Source: a virus (taxonomy: Duplodnaviria > Caudoviricetes). From it: a stretch of 31,147 bases of DNA. The stretch's first letter is position 1. The number at the start of each line of letters is the position of its first letter. The notes below the pieces were generated by a model. The model had not been told where the DNA came from and did no database searches. It saw only the letters and a program-made list of their open reading frames with translations. Positions 3,428-13,713 of this stretch are shown here, in pieces. The position numbers and the translations under genes were made by a program. The stretch spans positions 1 through 31,147 of IMG/VR virus record IMGVR_UViG_3300011420_000024. The stretch is one strand, 5' to 3'.

Positions 3428-4399
3428 TCAGGCTCCGACCAACCGGCCCTGGAACTGACGTCCAGAGCAGGTCAGATTCCCCGCCCAGGCCAGGATGCTC
3501 ACCTCGGCGTCCTGGTTCACGGCGTAGCGCTTGTTGGGCGACAACGGCACCATGTCCCGTGCGCTATGGGGGCGCAGGAAGATGTACTTCGTGTTCAGGA
3601 AGAAGGTCGTGTTCGCCGGGCAGAAGCCACCGATGCCGCCGTCGAGCACGACGTCGGCGTCCATGTACTTCACGCTCGGGAAGCCCAGGTTGCCCACCTC
3701 GGGCGAGGTGAAGCGCTGCTGCGCTTGCAGTGACGCAAGGTACACGCCCCAGGCTACGTTGTCCTGCACGATCAGGTCGGGCCTGTCGGTGCCACGGATC
3801 AGCGAGGCCCACATCGTGTTCATGAAGCCCTGGATGTTCGCCGCCGTCTGCGCTGCCGTCAGCGTGTACTTCGACGTCCAGAACAGCCATGTCGAGCCCA
3901 CGATGCCGCCGTAGGCGGTGACCTGCGAGGCTGGCGCCAGCGCGGGCATCGCAGCGCCCAGGCCCGTCAGGGACTTGCCTGCGTAGGTCGTGCCGTCGGC
4001 GTAGATGCCCTCGGCCATCAGGTTCGCCATCGTCGCCTCGGAGACGTTGATGCGGCCTTCCAGCAGGTCGATCATCTGCTCCTTGCCCGCGTTCTGGATT
4101 TGCTCCAGACCGGACATGGTCACCGGGCAGGCGAGTTGCTTGATGTTGAACTCAGCCGCCGAGATGACGTCGCTCGCGGCCACCGGCAGCAGGTCGTACC
4201 CGCTGTACCAGCCACCGTTCGCGTTCTGCGCGAAGGACAGTTCCTGGTAGATCACGTTGCCGCCCGAGAAGGGCTTGCGGTTGCCGCGCTGGTCGAGACG
4301 CATGTACAGCGCGTTGTTCTTGGTCACGTTGTCCGCGATCTTGCGGGTGCGCGACTGGATCGTCGTGGCGACGATGTCGGATACGTTGGGGAATGCCAT
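3428..4399 (-). CDS. Major capsid protein (323 aa)
   Basis: MAFPNVSDIVATTIQSRTRKIADNVTKNNAL start typical of a widespread podovirus-like capsid family; GGAGG SD; follows scaffold; size fits HK97 fold. Confidence 0.9.
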   Translation of the reverse strand: MAFPNVSDIVATTIQSRTRKIADNVTKNNALYMRLDQRGNRKPFSGGNVIYQELSFAQNANGGWYSGYDLLPVAASDVISAAEFNIKQLACPVTMSGLEQIQNAGKEQMIDLLEGRINVSEATMANLMAEGIYADGTTYAGKSLTGLGAAMPALAPASQVTAYGGIVGSTWLFWTSKYTLTAAQTAANIQGFMNTMWASLIRGTDRPDLIVQDNVAWGVYLASLQAQQRFTSPEVGNLGFPSVKYMDADVVLDGGIGGFCPANTTFFLNTKYIFLRPHSARDMVPLSPNKRYAVNQDAEVSILAWAGNLTCSGRQFQGRLVGA

Positions 4400-4538: not shown

Positions 4539-5669
4539 TCAGTACCGCGAATGCGCCTCGATGGCCGCTTCGATGCTCTCGCGGATCGAAGTCGGTTCAG
4601 CCACATTCGGGTTGCCGATGGGGGCCGACCCGGTCACGCTGACTGCGGCTGCGCGTGCGCGCTGGGCCGCTGCCGTCAGTTGGTGAGCGCTCGCCCCCTG
4701 TCGCTGGGCGATCATAACCTTGGAGATTTCGGGGTGCAAGAATGCCGCCCGCTCGTAGGCGTCGGCCAGACTCATGTCGAAGCCCTGGCGCTGGGCCACC
4801 TCGATCATGTCGGCCATCGCCACCCGCAGGTCGGGGAAATACTTATTCTTCGGGTCTGCGGCGAACTGCTCAAGCTCGCTGCGCGTGGCCGTCTCGGCCT
4901 GCTGCTGCACCTGCTGGTGGCGCTGCTGCGCGGCTTGGTACAGCGGCGCCAGGGCCTGCTGCACGGCCTGCTGCACGTACTGGGGATCGGTGCCCTGCTG
5001 CTGCTGCGGCAGCGGCTGGCCCACCAGGGCGTTGTCGAGGGACTGGATGTCCACGCCGTAGGTCTTGATGATCGTCGCCAGGGTCTGCGCCTTCTCGTTG
5101 GGCGTGCCCATCCTCATGCGGGTGGCGAACTGCATCAGGTTGGTGACCGCCGTCAACGGGTCAACCCCCTCGGCCTGGATCGCGGGCATGAAGGGCTGCA
5201 CGGCCTGATGGAAGCGCTCGCCAAGCTGGCGCGCCGGGGCCGTGTCCTGGGCCCACTGCTGCATCTGCGTCTCGCGCCGGGCAATCTCCTGCTGCGCTGC
5301 AACAGGAACCTGGGCCCAGGCCTCCTTGGCGCCGAAGCTCCAGCCATAGGGCGGCTGGATGGCCTGGGAAGGGGCCTGCGGGGCCGCTGGCGCCCCGATC
5401 ACGGGCGCGGTGGCACCTGGGGTGCCTGGAGCCGCTGCGGCGCCTCCTGGGGCCTTTTCGGCCTTCGGCAGGAAGCGGCCCATCGAGTCGCGCACCGGGG
5501 CGCTGCCCTCGGGCTTGGGATCGGCAGGCGGCGTGCCCTCGGGCGGCGTCTCGGGCGCTGGCGTGCCGCCGTCGCCGCTGTCGGGGGTGCCGACGCTGTC
5601 GCCGGGACTATCTTCAGCGGTACTCAGCGCCGACTCGATGTCGCCGCGCAGGTCGTCTTCGGGGCCCAT
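4539..5669 (-). CDS. Capsid scaffolding protein (376 aa)
   Basis: Acidic Pro-rich N-terminus, RDSMGRF motif, Q/A-rich helical core, SIRESIEAAI tail; directly upstream of capsid; AGGAG SD. Confidence 0.8.
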   Translation of the reverse strand: MGPEDDLRGDIESALSTAEDSPGDSVGTPDSGDGGTPAPETPPEGTPPADPKPEGSAPVRDSMGRFLPKAEKAPGGAAAAPGTPGATAPVIGAPAAPQAPSQAIQPPYGWSFGAKEAWAQVPVAAQQEIARRETQMQQWAQDTAPARQLGERFHQAVQPFMPAIQAEGVDPLTAVTNLMQFATRMRMGTPNEKAQTLATIIKTYGVDIQSLDNALVGQPLPQQQQGTDPQYVQQAVQQALAPLYQAAQQRHQQVQQQAETATRSELEQFAADPKNKYFPDLRVAMADMIEVAQRQGFDMSLADAYERAAFLHPEISKVMIAQRQGASAHQLTAAAQRARAAAVSVTGSAPIGNPNVAEPTSIRESIEAAIEAHSRY

Positions 5670-5679
5670 GAATTTCTCC

Positions 5680-6072
5680 TTATGTGCCCGTCATGCGGGC
5701 GATGGTTTCGGCAATATCGTTACGGGTAATTGCTCCACCGGCCTTGCCTTGCCGGTACAGATCGCGGGCGGCTTCGGCCTTGGCCCAGGATTCGGTGTAG
5801 TCGTCGGCGGTGGTCAGGCCGTGGCGCTTCATGTACTCGCGGTGCTTGCTGCGGCTTGAGATGTCAACGCCGTCCAGGGTCCGCAGGCCGTCGTAGGACC
5901 GATCCCCCGACAGCGGGTTGTCGATGGCCCTGAAGCGCACGGGCGGGAAGTAGCGGTCCATCTGCTGCTGGCAGCAGAAGTGCGGCAGGGGGTTGTCGAT
6001 GTGCTCGCGGATCGAGCGCACCGTCTCCTCCTCGCGCCCGCAGGCTTGGCATTTCCAGTTGTAGGTGGGCAC
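5680..6072 (-). CDS. FmdB-like zinc-ribbon protein
   Basis: MPTYNWKCQACG...CC motif; GTG start overlaps upstream stop. Confidence 0.75.
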   Translation of the reverse strand: MPTYNWKCQACGREEETVRSIREHIDNPLPHFCCQQQMDRYFPPVRFRAIDNPLSGDRSYDGLRTLDGVDISSRSKHREYMKRHGLTTADDYTESWAKAEAARDLYRQGKAGGAITRNDIAETIARMTGT

Positions 6073-7667
6073 TACTTCTTCTCCTCGCGCAGGGCGGCAA
6101 TGGTGGCGGCGGTGCCGCCAGTCCCAGCCGCGAGCGCGGCCAGCATCTCGGGGGTGGCAGCGCCCGCGTGGGTCTTGCCCATGATCACCATGTCGCGGGC
6201 CGTCTCAGGCGACACGTTTAAACGCCGTGAAGTGTCCATGATGCGCTGCGCCAGCAACTCCAGCTTGGGCGCGCCGATGGGCGACGTCACGCCCGTGGCG
6301 TTGGAGCCCGCGCCCCACACCACGGCCTGGGCGGGCACCGCCTCAAGCCCCGCCTCGCGGGCGATCTTGTCCTTCCACCACGGGCCCAGCGATACCATCT
6401 CGGGCACGCTCGCGCTGGCGCCCGCCGAGATGGGCGTGGTGCCACCGGCCTTGCCGCGTACGTCGGGCAGGCCCACCAGCCTCGACCAGTGCGCGTCACC
6501 GACAGGCCACTGCGTCTGGAAGCCCGTCTCGGGCACGCCGCTGGCGTGGATGTAGCTCGGGACTTTGGCGCTGCCCATGTCAAGCTCGCCGCCGCCGCGC
6601 AGGTACTTCGCCATCGGGCCCGCCTGGGCGGTCTTGTGGTAGGCGTGGCCCATGACCTTCGCCATGTCGTCGGGCCGGTTGCCGGTCATGCCGCCGCCGT
6701 GGGTCACGAAGTCATCGAAGCGCCCGGCCTTGTCGAGCCAGTTGGCGGCGGTGCCACGGTTCATCTCGGTCAGCACCTCGCTGCCAGGACTCGCCATGCC
6801 CGTCAGGGTGTTGAAGCGCTTGTACTCGGCCACGGCCTGCTCGGGCCCGTACAACTCCTCAAACCGTTTGTATAGCGGGTCCATCGTGTACCAGGAGGCC
6901 ATGCCCTCAAACAGGTCGGGCCGCTTGCGCGCCTCGCTGATGATGTCGAGCAGGCGCTGGTTGTTGCGCGGGTTCATCACCTCGCCCGCATGCGCGGCGC
7001 CCTTGGCGCCCGGGGCTGCGGCGAAGGGCCGCTCGGTCATGTTGCCTGCGCGGCGCCCCTGCTGCGAGATGTCGAACAAGTCGGAGCGGTTCACGCCGAA
7101 CAACTGCTGCATGGCCGGGTCTTCCGGCGCCACCTTCGCGCCCGCGACAAGCTCATCGGGGGCCTTGTAAACCCCGGGGAACATCGCCTCGCGCTTGGGC
7201 CGCATCACCGTGGGCACGACGCCCTTGGCTTGCTTGATGGCCTGCTCGGCGCCCGTCCTGGCGGCGCTGCCAGCGCCCCGCGTCGGCACCTCCAGCAGCC
7301 CCAGGGCGCCCGCCGCCATCATCGGGTTGCTCTCGGCGAACTGGTCCCAGCCCGCCTCGCCCTGGGCCACGCCGGGCACGCGCTCGCGGGCCCAGTCGAT
7401 GCCCTTGCCGATGGTCTGGCCCAGGCCCTGCAAGCGCTCGGCGCCGCGCTGCGTGCTCGGGCCACCGGCCCAGTCCTCGACGGCGCGAACCGTATCGGCG
7501 CCGCCCGACGCCGCCGCCTCGGGGCCCTTGCCGCGCAGCAGGTCAACGATGCCCCGGCTGGCCCCCGCCAAGCCCGCGACGGGCTGGACGGCCATGCCCT
7601 TGAGCAACTGGCCGGTGGCGTCGGCCTGCCCACCCACCTCGCGCAGCAACTCAGCCATGCTCGCCAT
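6072..7667 (-). CDS. 531-aa protein: Ala/Gly-rich N-terminal region plus putative HhH/glycosylase-like domain; possibly an internal virion protein
   Basis: AGGAG SD; motif series WY / ASPGSEV / KVPSY / VGDAHW / PAQAVVW. Confidence 0.6.
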   Translation of the reverse strand: MASMAELLREVGGQADATGQLLKGMAVQPVAGLAGASRGIVDLLRGKGPEAAASGGADTVRAVEDWAGGPSTQRGAERLQGLGQTIGKGIDWARERVPGVAQGEAGWDQFAESNPMMAAGALGLLEVPTRGAGSAARTGAEQAIKQAKGVVPTVMRPKREAMFPGVYKAPDELVAGAKVAPEDPAMQQLFGVNRSDLFDISQQGRRAGNMTERPFAAAPGAKGAAHAGEVMNPRNNQRLLDIISEARKRPDLFEGMASWYTMDPLYKRFEELYGPEQAVAEYKRFNTLTGMASPGSEVLTEMNRGTAANWLDKAGRFDDFVTHGGGMTGNRPDDMAKVMGHAYHKTAQAGPMAKYLRGGGELDMGSAKVPSYIHASGVPETGFQTQWPVGDAHWSRLVGLPDVRGKAGGTTPISAGASASVPEMVSLGPWWKDKIAREAGLEAVPAQAVVWGAGSNATGVTSPIGAPKLELLAQRIMDTSRRLNVSPETARDMVIMGKTHAGAATPEMLAALAAGTGGTAATIAALREEKK

Positions 7668-8212: not shown

Positions 8213-10264
8213 TCATTGCATCGGTGGTCCCGATGCGGGTTGCAATGGTGCTACGTTGGGGCCGGGCTGCATCGGCATGCCGCCGGGGCCCATGCCGCCT
8301 TCGACGGCCAGCATGGCCTCGGCGCCCTTGACACGGGCCTCGGCGAGGTTCTTGACAGCCTGGGTCTTGTTCTTGTCCACGTTGCTGTCCTTCTCGCGCA
8401 CCGTGGCCTCCTCGACGGGGTCGGGCTCGGGCGGCTTGTCGGGCTGCTGCGCGGCGGCGATGGCCTGATCGAGCACCGTCTCGATTTCCTTGGAGATGCG
8501 GAAGCCGCCCAGGCCCCACTTCATCATCTGGAGCACGACGGGGCCAGCCTCGGGCTTGCTCTCGATCAGCGGCGTGACCGCCGTGATGAAGGTGCCGACG
8601 GCGGTCATGAACTGCGAGCGGCTGTCGCGCTCCTGGGCCCAGTCCACCATCGCCATCGACTCTGCCTCGATGGTGATGCGGTAGAACTTGCTGTTGCCCG
8701 GCTCCTTCAGGAAGGCGATGGCCTGCTGCGCCAGCGGCGCGTCGGGCGAATGCTCGATGTTGCTGCGCTCCACGATGGTCTGCGGCTGGAACTTGTCGCA
8801 GATGATCTGCGACCTGATGCGCTGGCCCTGCGCGATCCAGGTGCCGATAGCCTGCTGTTTAAACTGGAGCCTGTTGCCGCCGAACTGGGCCTTCAGTTGC
8901 TGCGCGCCCAGCGTCTCGTCCGGGTCGGTCATGCCGCGCATGATGTCGCCGATGCCCAGCACCTCGTAGAGGTTGGCCTTGATGGCCTCGCGCTGCTGCG
9001 TCAACTGCCCGATCACCGACGCGATCACCTCGATGGGCACGAAGTCCATCTGGCCCTTCAGCCCGCCCTTCTCGGCGAACGCGGCCCAGTTGTCCACCGG
9101 GATCATCTGGTTCTCCATGCCCTCAATGAACACGCGCCCGACGGGCGTCGAATTCTTGTCGTAGACGCCGATCACCTTGCAGGCCTTGATCAGGTACTTC
9201 AGGCGCGTCGTGATTTCATCGATCTGCTGGTACTGATCCTGCGCGAGCAGGTAGTCGGCCCGGGGCATGAAGCGCGACGTCGCCGTGTTCGCCATCAGCG
9301 GCGCCGGGCACGGGAAGAAGCCCCGGAGCCCAAGCGGGTCGGGCTTGTAGTCGCAGATGACGTCGTAGCCCAGGACATGCCAGTACGCGCATTGCGTGGT
9401 CTTGTCCCAAATCTCGAAAACCGCCGCCTTCTCCCACGGGTCGTTCTGCGGGCCCACGCCGTCGTTCTTGGTCTTGCTCTTGCTCACCGGGATCAGCTTG
9501 CCGATCTTCTTGCCGAAGCGGGCGACCAGTTCCTCGCGGTTCATGAAGACCCGGCGCGCAACCCAGCGGACGTCCTGCCAGACCCGCGCAGGCGACCACC
9601 AGAAGTCCTCCCAGTAGACGTAGTCGGCGGGGGCATCCTCGCCCGTGATGGCCTCGTACTTGATGGGCTCGGCCAGTACAGCCCCGGTCTGCTGGTCGGT
9701 GACCGCCTCCGTCTCGGCTTCCTTCGTCTCCACCTCGTAGCGGTACCAGACCTGCCCCAGGCCCACCACCAGGAAGTCGCCGACGGCCTGCTTGGTCACC
9801 TCGGGGTATGTCGATTCGTCGCCGTCTTCGACGTCGTGATTGAGCATGCGCTGGAGGATGTTGCAGCCCACGCGGCTGACGTCGTCTTCGCTGTCCTTGT
9901 AGCTGTTGCTGACGTCCACGTTGGGCGGCTTGGCGTACAGGCTGGCCTTGAGCACCTCGATGTTCGACCAGAACAGGTTGAACTTGCTGTCGGCGCCGCC
10001 GTCCATCGCGCTCGCGTCGCGCTCATCGAGGTACTTCTGCACCAGCCTGCGCCCCAGCGAATGGAACTTGGTCAACTCCTTCTTCGCCGCTTGCAGTTCA
10101 GTCTCCCAGCGCTTCGCCATCTCGGCAGGCGACTTGCCCTTGGCCTCCTTGGGCACCTTGGACTGATCCCCGGGCTTCACAGGCTCGTTGATGTCCTTGG
10201 CGTTGCTGGGGTCGGGGTCGGTCCCGTAGCCCTTTTCGTCACTGGTAGTTGTCTTGCGGGGCAT
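8213..10264 (-). CDS. Portal protein (683 aa)
   Basis: FNLFWSNIEVLKASLYAKPP, WEDFWWSPARVW, GFFPCPAPL motifs; size and position after terL; TGATG coupling with terL stop. Confidence 0.9.
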   Translation of the reverse strand: MPRKTTTSDEKGYGTDPDPSNAKDINEPVKPGDQSKVPKEAKGKSPAEMAKRWETELQAAKKELTKFHSLGRRLVQKYLDERDASAMDGGADSKFNLFWSNIEVLKASLYAKPPNVDVSNSYKDSEDDVSRVGCNILQRMLNHDVEDGDESTYPEVTKQAVGDFLVVGLGQVWYRYEVETKEAETEAVTDQQTGAVLAEPIKYEAITGEDAPADYVYWEDFWWSPARVWQDVRWVARRVFMNREELVARFGKKIGKLIPVSKSKTKNDGVGPQNDPWEKAAVFEIWDKTTQCAYWHVLGYDVICDYKPDPLGLRGFFPCPAPLMANTATSRFMPRADYLLAQDQYQQIDEITTRLKYLIKACKVIGVYDKNSTPVGRVFIEGMENQMIPVDNWAAFAEKGGLKGQMDFVPIEVIASVIGQLTQQREAIKANLYEVLGIGDIMRGMTDPDETLGAQQLKAQFGGNRLQFKQQAIGTWIAQGQRIRSQIICDKFQPQTIVERSNIEHSPDAPLAQQAIAFLKEPGNSKFYRITIEAESMAMVDWAQERDSRSQFMTAVGTFITAVTPLIESKPEAGPVVLQMMKWGLGGFRISKEIETVLDQAIAAAQQPDKPPEPDPVEEATVREKDSNVDKNKTQAVKNLAEARVKGAEAMLAVEGGMGPGGMPMQPGPNVAPLQPASGPPMQ

Positions 10265-11625
10265 CAGAGTCTCCCTTCGTTGGGCCGGGGCCCGACAGTC
10301 GCCCACAACTGGTCGAGGGTGAAGCTGCGGTCAATGGGCGGCACGATTATGGTCTTCGGCTCGGGCGGCGGGTCGAGCACCATCAGGCGGGCGGCGCCTT
10401 CCATGTAGGCGTCGGCGCCGTGGCTCGACCAGTCGTGCTCGGGCTCGCTGCTGAAGGTCTTCGTCTCGTCGTCGTACTTGTAGGCGTAGGCCCGCATCGC
10501 CATCAGGAAGGGCTCGCAGACCGGGGCGTCACTGATGCGGGCGCGGCGCAGCATGACGCGCCCGGCGTTGATGCTGTCGGCCTTCTTGCGCTGCTCGTTT
10601 ACACGCACCTCGCAGCCCTTCCACGGCGGGTTGGCGAGGAACGTCTCGACGGCGGTGCGCTTGCTGGCGAACGTCCTGGCGCGGGCGTCGTGCGGCAGCA
10701 CCAGGACGTTGGCGGGCGGCTGCTTGGACAGGCGCTCGATCCATTCCTCGGCGTCCATGCCGCTGCCGTCGTCGTAGTGGAAGACTTCAAACCCGCCGCG
10801 CATGCGCTTCCACCAAACCCACGCGGCCTTGTCGCGGTAGCCGATGTCCGACGTCACCCACACCTCGTCGTTGGGCCCTGGTGGGTCGATGTGGCAGATG
10901 CGGCCCTGCTTCTCGGCCTGCTCGATGTAGCGCCCGAAGATCGCGCCGACGTTGGCCGCGCTGAAGTCGCAGTCGTACTCCTGCCGGTACAACTCATCGG
11001 GCATCTCGGCGCGCTCGTCATCCAGGACGCTCTGCGCGATGTGCTTCGTGTCCTTGACGCCCAGGTGCGAATGGAACCACGCAGGGTTGGCCTTCGCCAG
11101 CTTGATCAGGTCGTAGAAGTGGTTGTAGCCCCGGGGTGTGCTGATGAATGCCGCCCAGCCGCCGTTGCCTGCCAGGATCGGACGGAATATCTGCCACGCA
11201 CGTGGGTCACTGAGCGCTGCCTCGCTCATCGTCAGGCCGAAGGGGTTCGCGCCGACGATGCTGTCGTAGTAGTCGCTGCCCACCAACTGCCAGATCGCGC
11301 CGTTGCGTAGCGTGATCTTCATCTCGGTCTTGTTCGTGTCCTGCCGGATCGCGGAGGGCATCGCAGTGTCGAGAATCTTGTGGCCGGTGTTGTCGAAGCC
11401 GTCCCATATCACCTTCCTGGCCTGCTTGTGATTCGGGAGCATGTGGAAGTACATGCCTGGACGTTCAAACATCATCTTGACCGTCTGATGCACCATCGTC
11501 AGGTCTTTGCCGTAGCGGCGCGGCCAGCACGCGGCGGCACGCAGGCCACCGTGATCGAAGTAGCGCATCAGGCTGCGCTGCGGTGGCCTGGGCGTGAACC
11601 CGTTGGGCAGGATCAGTTCGCTCAT
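10264..11625 (-). CDS. terL: Terminase large subunit
   Basis: Walker A-like WPRRYGKD, Walker B-like TMSEAA, coupling motif FISTPRGYNHFY, nuclease DIG..D and HDWSSHGADA. Confidence 0.95.
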   Translation of the reverse strand: MSELILPNGFTPRPPQRSLMRYFDHGGLRAAACWPRRYGKDLTMVHQTVKMMFERPGMYFHMLPNHKQARKVIWDGFDNTGHKILDTAMPSAIRQDTNKTEMKITLRNGAIWQLVGSDYYDSIVGANPFGLTMSEAALSDPRAWQIFRPILAGNGGWAAFISTPRGYNHFYDLIKLAKANPAWFHSHLGVKDTKHIAQSVLDDERAEMPDELYRQEYDCDFSAANVGAIFGRYIEQAEKQGRICHIDPPGPNDEVWVTSDIGYRDKAAWVWWKRMRGGFEVFHYDDGSGMDAEEWIERLSKQPPANVLVLPHDARARTFASKRTAVETFLANPPWKGCEVRVNEQRKKADSINAGRVMLRRARISDAPVCEPFLMAMRAYAYKYDDETKTFSSEPEHDWSSHGADAYMEGAARLMVLDPPPEPKTIIVPPIDRSFTLDQLWATVGPRPNEGRL

Positions 11626-11636
11626 CGTTTACACGC

Positions 11637-11759
11637 TCAGTCGCCCCAATACTCGTGCCACGACAGCCAGCGCTCCTCGACCCTGCACGCCAGCAGGTAG
11701 CTCGCCACGGCCACGGTGGCCGTGATGACGACGATGCCGATGGCGACGATGCAGATCAC
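11637..11759 (-). CDS. Micro-ORF, single TM helix (40 aa, MICIVAIGIVVITATVAVASYLLACRVEERWLSWHEYWGD)
   Basis: GTGA start/stop overlap with upstream micro-ORF; hydrophobic N-terminal half. Confidence 0.6.
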   Translation of the reverse strand: MICIVAIGIVVITATVAVASYLLACRVEERWLSWHEYWGD

Positions 11760-11914
11760 GCCAGCCGCCCCATCAACCTCGACAGCAGCGCATTGTCCCG
11801 CGTGACGTTGGCCGCGATGCGCGGCGCGTGCTTACGGAGCACCTCGCTGATGGTGCGAGAGATGTTGAACACGCGGCGGCGCGTGCTGTTGCGACGGCGG
11901 CGCAGACTTGTCAT
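11756..11914 (-). CDS. 52-aa basic protein resembling the major capsid N-terminus
   Basis: ATGA overlap; MTSLRRRRNSTRRRVFNISRTISEVLRKHAPRIAANVTRDNALLSRLMGRLA aligns ungapped to capsid residues 5-35. Confidence 0.7.
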   Translation of the reverse strand: MTSLRRRRNSTRRRVFNISRTISEVLRKHAPRIAANVTRDNALLSRLMGRLA

Positions 11915-12009
11915 GGCCCGTACCACATGCGGTACTCGATGACGCGCTCGATCACGTAGGCCGCGAGCGCGCCCACTGCGATGCCGCCGATGAAGGCCAG
12001 CCAGATCAC
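11911..12009 (-). CDS. Micro-ORF, single TM helix (32 aa, MIWLAFIGGIAVGALAAYVIERVIEYRMWYGP)
   Basis: GTGA overlap upstream, ATGA overlap downstream. Confidence 0.6.
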   Translation of the reverse strand: MIWLAFIGGIAVGALAAYVIERVIEYRMWYGP

Positions 12010-12104
12010 GCCCAGGCCTCCACTGCCGTGATGACCGCAGCGGCGATCAGCGGGCTCGCTGCGATGACCCACAGCATCCAGGCAGGGTCAACGGCGCAGG
12101 TCAC
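12006..12104 (-). CDS. Micro-ORF, single TM helix (32 aa, MTCAVDPAWMLWVIAASPLIAAAVITAVEAWA)
   Basis: GTGA overlaps at both ends. Confidence 0.55.
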   Translation of the reverse strand: MTCAVDPAWMLWVIAASPLIAAAVITAVEAWA

Positions 12105-12415
12105 TGGTCGATCCCCTCGATGCCCTTGTGCCCCGCCACCAGTTCGCGGGCCTTGGCCGTGCCCAGGGCCTCCAGGTCAGTGGCCTGGAGCAGGTCCAGG
12201 CCACTGACGGCCACGCGGGCCTCACCCAGGCGCACCACGACGCTGTCGCTGTCGCTGGCGCCCAGGATGCGGCAGTCGGCCAGCCGATGGGGGCGCAGGC
12301 CCTGCCGGAAGCCCCTGATGAAGGCATCGGGCAGGAACTGGACGTAATTCCCCGTAACGAAACTGCCGGGGCTGCTGGCCCTGGGGTGGAGGCCTTCCGG
12401 CCATGTCGCGCCCAT
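12101..12415 (-). CDS. Hypothetical protein (104 aa)
   Basis: ATG 1 nt after terS stop, AAGGAGG SD. Confidence 0.6.
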   Translation of the reverse strand: MGATWPEGLHPRASSPGSFVTGNYVQFLPDAFIRGFRQGLRPHRLADCRILGASDSDSVVVRLGEARVAVSGLDLLQATDLEALGTAKARELVAGHKGIEGIDQ

Positions 12416-12416
12416 C

Positions 12417-12797
12417 TCAGGCCTCCTTGCGGATCACCACGGTCAATGGCCCGCCACCCTCGCCGACCTGCTCCTGGCGGGACAGCTTGGGCGCTGCGAA
12501 GTCAGCGAGGTGCCCCAGGCGCGTGAGCGCACCAGCGGGGTCAGCGGGCCTGCCCGCCATGATCACTTGGCCCTTGGCGTTGAGCTTGTCGGGCGTGCCC
12601 TCTGCGACCTGCCGCAGCCACAGGGCGACGTTCTCGCGGTTGTCATCGAGCAGGCGCTGCACCGTGACGCGGAACTCCTGCGTGACCTTGTTGGGCACGC
12701 CCTTGACCCGCCCCTTGCCCGCGTTGGGAGGCTTGCGCCTGGGCGTTTCAACAGCAGGCACCAGCACTTTGCTGGCCTTGTCAAGGACTTTCGGCAT
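12417..12797 (-). CDS. terS: Terminase small subunit (126 aa)
   Basis: NAGKGRVKGVPNKVT N-terminal motif and APKLSRQEQVGEGGGPL C-terminal motif typical of TerS; upstream of terL. Confidence 0.8.
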   Translation of the reverse strand: MPKVLDKASKVLVPAVETPRRKPPNAGKGRVKGVPNKVTQEFRVTVQRLLDDNRENVALWLRQVAEGTPDKLNAKGQVIMAGRPADPAGALTRLGHLADFAAPKLSRQEQVGEGGGPLTVVIRKEA

Positions 12798-12802
12798 GCC
12801 GC

Positions 12803-12832
12803 AGTGTAGCCCTCTGCGGGCCACGCCGTCGA
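12803..12832 (-). promoter_or_regulatory. Putative sigma70-type promoter for terS (possibly leaderless)
   Basis: Minus strand TCGACG-N18-TACACT, 5 nt, then ATG; same GGGC-TACA junction as the early promoters. Confidence 0.4.
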
Positions 12833-12965
12833 GCGCTGGACGACGACGGGCTCGCGTGCGCGGGCGCTCGCGCACATGCGATCTATATATATTTAATGTC
12901 CTTATGTCCCTATAGAGGGCCCTACGAACAAGACAAGAGGACCGCAGACCTACATAGACCCCCTC

Positions 12966-13232
12966 TCAAACGGGGCGTTTTTTCGCCAGCTTCAGGCCGT
13001 GGGCAAGCTGCCTGTCGTAGGCCTGCCTGCTCGCCACCGTGACGCAGTACGGTGGGTACTTCTTGATGCGCGCCGCCCGTTCGCTAGTCTTGGCCTGCGA
13101 GGCCACCCGGGCCTTGATGGCCTCGACCAGCACCCGGTGTGAGGCCTGGGCCGTCTTGATGACGTCGGCCAGCGCCGCTTCCTGCTTACGCATGTTGGAC
13201 AGGTTCGTGTCCAGATTCGGGGTCAATTTCAC
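12966..13232 (-). CDS. Basic hypothetical protein (88 aa)
   Basis: GGAG SD before GTG; helical composition. Confidence 0.6.
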   Translation of the reverse strand: MKLTPNLDTNLSNMRKQEAALADVIKTAQASHRVLVEAIKARVASQAKTSERAARIKKYPPYCVTVASRQAYDRQLAHGLKLAKKRPV

Positions 13233-13261
13233 GGTAGGCTCCAGTCAATTTGTGGGCCATC

Positions 13262-13270
13262 AGTATACCA
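13262..13270 (-). promoter_or_regulatory. Putative leftward extended -10 promoter
   Basis: Minus strand TG-G-TATACT in the AT-rich divergence region. Confidence 0.4.
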
Positions 13271-13293
13271 CCCACTTATTTGTGAAATAGTGC

Positions 13294-13323
13294 TTGCGCC
13301 GCCTTGAACATCCGGGCTACACT
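13294..13323 (+). promoter_or_regulatory. Putative early promoter P1
   Basis: TTGCGC-N18-TACACT at the strand divergence; contains operator-like GGGCTACA half-site. Confidence 0.55.
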
Positions 13324-13356
13324 ACGTGCGACGGATCAACAAACAAGGTACTGCAA

Positions 13357-13713
13357 ATGAACACCGCCCCCGCCCTGCTCGACACTGCCGCAGTCGCCGC
13401 CCCCGCCAAGAAGGGCCGCCCCGCCAAGCACGCCGACGCAGCCGCCCGCCAGCGCGCCTTCCGCGCCGCCAACAAGCTCAAGACCCTGCGCCTGGACGGC
13501 AAGGCCGCTGCCACCATCGCCAAGCTCGCCGCCGACTTCGACACCGACGAGACGCATGTCGTCAACAACCTGATCCGCTTCGCCCTGGCGAACCGCAACT
13601 GGATGTCCACCGGCATCGGCGGCTGGGCCATCAAGGACATGCGCGCCACCAGCGGCAAGCGCGAAGCCCCCGCCGAGCGCGACGACTCCCTCGATTCCTT
13701 CTCCCTCGCCTGA
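13357..13713 (+). CDS. Putative DNA-binding protein (AT-hook-like KKGRP plus possible RHH-like region)
   Basis: KKGRPAKHADAAARQRAFR, then KTLRLDGKAAATIAKLA; first early gene. Confidence 0.6.
   Translation: MNTAPALLDTAAVAAPAKKGRPAKHADAAARQRAFRAANKLKTLRLDGKAAATIAKLAADFDTDETHVVNNLIRFALANRNWMSTGIGGWAIKDMRATSGKREAPAERDDSLDSFSLA

Follow-up and report, generated by a model that had tools for sequence, protein, structure and literature searches.

The window, the whole stretch of DNA that was analysed (31,147 nucleotides), represents part of a GC-rich tailed phage genome, with a head module on the minus strand (terL, portal, probable scaffold and a phrog_9953 capsid gene) and replication genes on the plus strand. 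The features at issue are the following:

3428-4399, minus strand: major capsid protein of phrog_9953 (Mx8-like) with the HK97 fold, from PHROGs, a structure model and a fold match
4295-4387, minus strand: capsid segment matched by the module, residues 5-35, the flexible N-terminal arm (N-arm) and the helix before the E-loop, from the alignment and the capsid model
4539-5669, minus strand: probable scaffolding protein and candidate partner, called by position and acidity without a family match, with an Arg-containing amphipathic motif at both ends
10264-11625, minus strand: terminase large subunit (phrog_2, E 4.5e-34)
11637-11759, minus strand: 40-residue hydrophobic ORF whose GTG overlaps the stop of the 52-residue ORF (GTGA), with a weak match to phrog_5607
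11756-11914, minus strand: 52-residue ORF, an Arg-rich leader plus a capsid N-arm module, from translation, alignment, dN/dS, contigs of other runs and a capsid-only profile
11774-11866, minus strand: capsid N-arm module, residues 17-47, from alignment and profile, with three predicted short helices (18-28, 30-39 and 42-51)
11870-11908, minus strand: Arg-rich leader, residues 3-15, of low pLDDT, in which each of three pairwise comparisons shows 4-5 synonymous differences and no non-synonymous one
11911-12009, minus strand: 32-residue hydrophobic ORF whose stop overlaps the ATG of the 52-residue ORF (ATGA)
12417-12875, minus strand: probable terminase small subunit, called by position only, matching two PHROGs of unknown function; the same ORF lies upstream of terL in relatives

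The 52-residue translation of 11756-11914 quoted in the first-pass annotation, which was made from the DNA letters alone, was reproduced. That annotation set the ORF between terS and terL and described it as coupled to both neighbours. The identity of terL is borne out by PHROGs, whereas the terS call comes from position only; the ATGA and GTGA overlaps are present, but the genes that they join to the ORF are the two small hydrophobic ORFs rather than terS and terL. The 52-residue ORF is probably translated by coupling to these neighbours; a search of 11400-13400 yielded no sigma-70-like promoter. As an alternative start, a GTG lying four codons before the ATG would give 56 residues. The GC3 of the ORF is 0.88, with neighbouring genes at 0.84-0.97. 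In two runs that carry no mark as a possible source, contigs span the ORF completely (X13) or for the most part (X23), and since these contigs show no difference an assembly error is excluded. No RNA data set was listed among those containing the sequence.

Three small ORFs form a coupled chain at 11637-12415. In relatives the terS-terL interval is hypervariable (L009-L063), many having a methyltransferase-like gene together with changing sets of hydrophobic ORFs of 25-55 residues, and across the 44 loci listed a changing set of small ORFs fills the interval. Within the head module, a 531-residue ORF without a PHROG match (6072-7667, minus strand) lies between the portal and scaffold genes. 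A scan of 30 window ORFs, many of them without any match, gave no match to a prohead protease. The scaffold candidate has one Arg-containing amphipathic helix motif at each end in 31 of 42 relatives, and these two ends may possibly be two capsid-binding hooks.

Resemblance to and divergence from the capsid arm

The alignment first reported between module residues 17-47 and capsid residues 5-35 was recovered as a gapless match with 12 of 31 residues identical, 10 of 16 in the core. It is significant against shuffled controls: none of 20,000 shuffles against the capsid reached its BLOSUM62 score of 61 (maximum 56), while against the six-frame window 1 of 500 did. A profile of 87 capsid N-termini, built without any free-standing sequence, scored the ORF at 25.1 bits compared with a shuffle maximum of 14.1 (17,889 of the 20,000 shuffles reported), and within the window it found the capsid and the 52-residue frame alone (E 1.3e-6). 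By itself the 52-residue protein had no PHROG match at E 0.01. The first-pass annotation had argued from codon usage for conservation at the protein level rather than a recent DNA duplication, and this holds, as codons differ at six of the 12 identities and the phage's own capsid is no closer than average. By the same token, mimicry of that capsid in particular is not upheld, the own capsid sharing 12/31 residues with the module and the 87 capsids a mean of 12.7/31. Where both genes were available from one genome (six cases), the own capsid was equalled or surpassed in its match to the module by 23-94% of the other capsids, which agrees with the expectation for a family-wide epitope.

Structures matched by the capsid model (mean pLDDT 74.6) include the HK97-fold capsids of SU10, Mic1 and HK97. 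In the monomer model residues 1-27 fall below pLDDT 50, a helix occupies 30-38 and the E-loop strands start at residue 49; given this layout, the copied part corresponds to the flexible N-arm and the helix before the E-loop. The N-arm is unpacked in the monomer model. The model of the 52-residue protein (mean pLDDT 79, pTM 0.43) shows three short helices behind a loosely structured leader, and a fold search with this model returned nothing significant. The protein lacks the full HK97 fold of about 320 residues (E-loop, P and A domains) that the phage's capsid possesses.

Compared with its close homologues L193 and L220, the ORF has a dN/dS of 0.36-0.40 over 45 codons (terL control 0.24), a value in the purifying range that is based on three sequences. 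Regionally, dN/dS is 0.23-0.44 in the core and 0.64-0.80 in the middle of the module, and the Arg-rich leader has no replacements against 4-5 silent differences per pair; for another pair, L205 and L215, dN/dS is 0.62. On this small sample the ORF does not look like a decaying capsid fragment, the alternative that the first-pass annotation had raised, and judged from sequence comparison it is confirmed as a real gene under selection.

The free module and the Mx8-like capsid N-arm (phrog_9953; NF033394) are homologous over about 31-35 residues, with a profile-profile probability of 98.7% to the phrog_9953 arm. Unlike the capsid, however, the free module has no capsid body, has a foreign leader in front, mostly loses Thr12 and Asp23, gains Arg15 and clusters separately on a tree. 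Thr12 and Asp23 are invariant in 30 aligned capsids. (A separate figure of 100% Asp23 among capsids was discarded, as its extraction rule demanded Asp or Asn at position 23.) Among free modules, Thr12 is kept in 18%, position 23 is Asp in 10% and Ala in 62%, the Ala share being inflated by a seed pattern that demanded Ala, and Arg was gained at position 15 in 74%; the 52-residue protein has Glu and Ala in the places of Thr12 and Asp23. Because both residues are mostly lost, free modules do not appear to be built like lattice subunits. Acids occupy both positions 8 and 23 in 86 of 87 capsid arms compared with 20 of 118 free modules, while the 52-residue protein has neither, and the net charge of the module is +4. 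What the module keeps are the hydrophobic positions and Asn24, Asn29, Leu31, Arg34 and Leu35, which are best kept in capsids as well.

Of the 118 modules, 89 have another module rather than a capsid as their closest sequence, and the 52-residue ORF reaches 20/31 with another free module. On a tree of the 31-residue segments (unrooted and without support values), the label changes between capsid and free 4 times, compared with a mean of 66 when shuffled. The phage's own capsid is of a sub-type with Asp8, Ile14 and Gln15, whereas the family's commonest residues are those of the other sub-type at five diagnostic positions, of which the 52-residue protein matches two. A score that placed 117 of 118 modules in capsid sub-type B was set aside because it favoured the broader sub-type profile, and single positions were used instead.

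A family of free-standing arm modules

Single-sequence searches returned only the 52-residue protein itself, identical phages or a chance match in a tail gene (L005). A tblastn search of this protein and P0131 against 50,697 GenBank phage records found capsid genes and, for P0131, two further weak matches (E 7-10); the protein Atlas gave no usable match for the former, and all leads for P0131 were below 0.9. With a capsid-weighted profile, the best 120 of 398 matches held truncated capsids only. A motif that allowed any codon at the place of capsid Asp23, scanned over 5 of the collection's 64 parts, matched 119 times, namely in 118 capsids (117 with Asp) and the 52-residue ORF. When Ala was demanded at that position, the capsids dropped out and short ORFs ending just past the motif appeared. 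Chance pattern matches were discarded (3 of 12 in one scan, most of 40 in another), and L212, at a contig edge, was left uncounted. A variant pattern with a purine-ending codon at the Asp position found nothing new, and the strict pattern found one chance match across bacterial genomes. One match in a plasmid collection was rejected as an ordinary prophage capsid.

A profile from 11 short ORFs, run against 1.84 billion representatives, gave 338 matches at E <=0.001. The best 150 of these comprise 121 short proteins without a capsid-like start (including 7 query or seed sequences), 28 with capsid-like starts and 1 unrelated protein, so that the family counts at least 121 clusters at 50% identity among the best 150 of 338 matches. 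The search by profile for which the first-pass annotation had called thus brought out standalone short relatives. Of its wider interpretation, protein conservation, a selected gene and the want of a described family have stood, whereas the link to the own capsid gives way to a likeness to the capsid family at large, and the gene proves to be one member of a large modular family with several leader types. Full-text literature searching, which covered few subscription papers, found no paper on free-standing capsid-arm proteins, and the family apparently has not been described. Models other than those for capsid and Tat signals were found neither in PHROGs and NCBIfam (74 members scanned) nor in Pfam (27 proteins scanned); 38 of the 74 members match phrog_9953 and 20 match NCBIfam NF033394 (capsid_maj_Podo).

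Family members have a median length of 82 residues, and in 82 of 118 the C-terminus lies no more than 10 residues from the Leu35 position. Their leaders, classed by crude in-house rules, are twin-arginine-like with a hydrophobic stretch in 55 of 121, Arg/Lys-rich in 22, Trp/His-rich in 20, membrane-like in 5 and other or short in 19. The Tat signal model PF10518 matched 7 of 27 proteins scanned, only 1 of them over the curated cut-off, and TIGR01409 matched 10 of 74; the window's 52-residue protein has no twin-arginine motif, and from its composition the Arg-rich leader likely binds nucleic acid. Several members are nearly without a leader, which suggests that the module is the working part, and the module rather than the leader would be the effector. 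Some members (P0159, P0197, P0202, P0215, P0226, P0229, P0233, P0252, P0264 and P0274) also contain short motifs from around the capsid E-loop, which in a few proteins precede the arm module, and hence the mosaic extends past the arm. In the 48-residue P0137 the Arg-rich arm and first helix are kept while the end is unrelated, and the arm and core are thus separable. One weak member is fused to an HTH_39 domain and adjoins replication genes.

The proteins found by profile come without genomic context. Context was available for 16 other loci, two of them weak members. At nine of the 16 the gene adjoins terminase or portal genes on the same strand (eight by PHROGs, L220 by resemblance); at the other seven it follows the capsid module on the opposite strand, closes a nucleotide-metabolism module or has other surroundings. 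In the carriers L240 (1171-5552) and L255, the genes just upstream of the arm gene, among them one resembling thymidylate synthase, hint at a cluster for DNA base modification. Among 10 carrier records searched with the capsid family, four have a full Mx8-like capsid gene and the other six are fragments at most 30% complete; L194 also carries an Mx8-like capsid gene, and wherever a capsid gene lay on a carrier contig it was Mx8-like. In 91 contigs picked by capsid or terL, the capsid was found in 89 along with one second, weak and divergent match, with 3 of 3 positive controls detected. The 52-residue peptide occurs in none of 55 non-identical terL relatives whose DNA was fetched, some with little upstream DNA. 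The arm gene is a rare accessory of the Mx8-like phage group.

Possible roles of the arm module

Bacterial immune systems count capsid proteins among their major triggers, and head assembly is driven by the interface of arm and scaffold. Each candidate mechanism for the family has a known analogue. The reading that we tentatively favour, while rating it at somewhat less than an even chance, is that the 52-residue protein is an anchored decoy that occupies a host protein able to recognise the N-arm while the capsid is still unassembled. Under this scenario, the protein would be made from the late operon and its module would capture a host protein specific for the arm of Mx8-like capsid subunits before their assembly, while the leader would hold the bound host protein on nucleic acid; in relatives with twin-arginine-like or hydrophobic leaders, the host protein would be held on the membrane instead. 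The leader would accordingly serve as a nucleic-acid or membrane anchor and the partner of the module would be a host sensor. For the family at large, a portable arm module on exchangeable membrane or nucleic-acid anchors acting as a decoy across a large environmental phage group is possible, and we hold that view with more reserve.

A decoy would account for one module joined to several unrelated leaders, a few members being almost leaderless, for the rare and patchy distribution and hypervariable slot, and for a module that does not track the own capsid, has lost Thr12 and Asp23 and copies an arm left unpacked in the capsid monomer model. Precedents exist for its parts. A 29-residue peptide in the first quarter of T4 gp23 sets off Lit via EF-Tu, so that a short peptide (Gol) of the capsid's N-terminal quarter suffices for host recognition (PMC3014915, available text). 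Gol, however, lies within the capsid protein itself and sets off defence, and it is comparable to the arm module at least in its N-terminal location. DSAD1 is a phage protein that blocks DSR2 by filling the site where this defence protein senses a virion protein (PMC11087589, available text), which resembles the proposed decoy, but the DSR2 trigger is the tail tube rather than a capsid arm and a sequence link is not expected. According to the available text on CapRel (PMC9712102) and Avs7 (10.64898/2026.01.04.697583), both touch the capsid in its P and A domains and E-loop and not in the arm; a decoy would therefore need a different sensor, and of CapRel and Lit, the two systems to which the first-pass annotation had pointed, Lit with Gol is the closer precedent. 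Against the decoy, no sensor of the N-arm segment and no host of the phage is known, and the strictly conserved Arg-rich arm and the nine of 16 loci beside terminase or portal genes would suit a packaging role equally. In addition, the Asp-to-Ala shift is inflated by the seed pattern, the dN/dS comes from three sequences and reaches 0.80 in mid-module, and head-internal accessory proteins would fit the rarity as well.

A close rival, to which we give a slightly lower chance than to the decoy, is a procapsid tag or tether, in which the module would replace the capsid arm on the scaffold or in the groove of capsid subunits, carrying the leader in or tying DNA or membrane to the phage's own procapsid. 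An N-arm helix binds the scaffold in 80alpha (PMC5644958), SPP1 (PMC6813328) and P22, in the last with Arg/Lys of the scaffold pairing with acids of the arm (PMC12005531), according to the available text of each. The probable scaffold of the window's phage is acidic with an amphipathic motif at both ends (31 of 42 relatives) and the module is basic (+4), and more than half of the loci adjoin head-packaging genes. There is also a precedent in T4 IPI-III, diverse defence proteins that share one conserved capsid targeting sequence (PMC3012670, available text) and, like the present family, are small, basic, varied accessories with one peptide linked to head assembly. In the arm family, however, the conserved part is C-terminal and capsid-derived and the N-termini vary. 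Nothing points to removal of an N-terminal signal by cleavage, the head genes include no recognisable prohead protease, and leaders resembling membrane or export signals, which make up about half, are awkward for a packaged protein. A P22-type contact needs the arm acids that are both kept in only 20 of 118 modules and wholly missing from the 52-residue protein. Furthermore, the own capsid is not tracked and several members have almost no cargo. Given their rarity, interchangeable anchors, lack of own-capsid tracking and loss of lattice-invariant residues, the decoy fits the modules somewhat better than the tag.

It is improbable that the module is a weapon against competing Mx8-like phages, titrating a rival's scaffold or swapping into its capsid subunits and so spoiling head assembly. 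The family is rare and diverse, its commonest residues match a sub-type other than the own capsid's at the five diagnostic positions, and competing scaffolds are known, such as SaPI CpmB, a small protein acting at the arm-scaffold interface (PMC5644958, available text). However, CpmB copies the scaffold side and belongs to a satellite, whereas the module copies the capsid side and belongs to a phage; the carriers L190 and L198 have a capsid of the very sub-type that the family resembles, implying self-harm, the 52-residue protein matches that sub-type at only two of five positions, and late co-expression with the own capsid would be risky. Quite improbable, too, is a co-opted helical module with a job unrelated to capsid recognition, such as binding DNA or membranes as a basic peptide. 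The predicted three-helix basic peptide, the weak member fused to HTH_39 by replication genes and the seven of 16 loci away from head genes would suit this reading, but the best-kept positions are those of capsids, five members run on into the next capsid motif and the capsid on carrier contigs was always Mx8-like. Neutral, decaying capsid fragments arising repeatedly by recombination are very improbable and already largely refuted, as the singletons, the hypervariable slot, the members with other capsid motifs out of order and the coreless P0137 are outweighed by the purifying dN/dS with no replacement in the Arg-rich arm, the 4 rather than 66 label changes, the common end point near Leu35 in 82 of 118 members and the lack of any excess match to the own capsid.

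If the decoy is correct, bacteria would possess a sensor for the N-arm of capsid protein not yet assembled, and anti-defence genes made from pieces of a phage's own immune triggers would form a general class. The more than 100 small arm copies are ready-made bait for a new capsid sensor or a new head-loading route, and cultured phages with the same capsid family (Mx8, Mx9 and ppBjS10J-1) make the family testable. Arm genes are short enough to escape annotation or to be mislabelled as capsid fragments.

Two further observations concern the Mx8-like capsid gene. A Burkholderia cenocepacia record (L326:6177-13549) holds an unannotated Mx8-like prophage head module, with a capsid gene and no free module in the 24 kb read. 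Many Mx8-like capsid genes break off at one of a few common sites and end in a common set of short tails, in some cases inside long contigs (L071:623-814, L090:629-814 and L125:623-841; P0009, P0014, P0028, P0039, P0048, P0050, P0058, P0062, P0063, P0085, P0086, P0114 and others), and these recurrent positions and shared tails suggest site-specific mobile introns or insertions in the gene.
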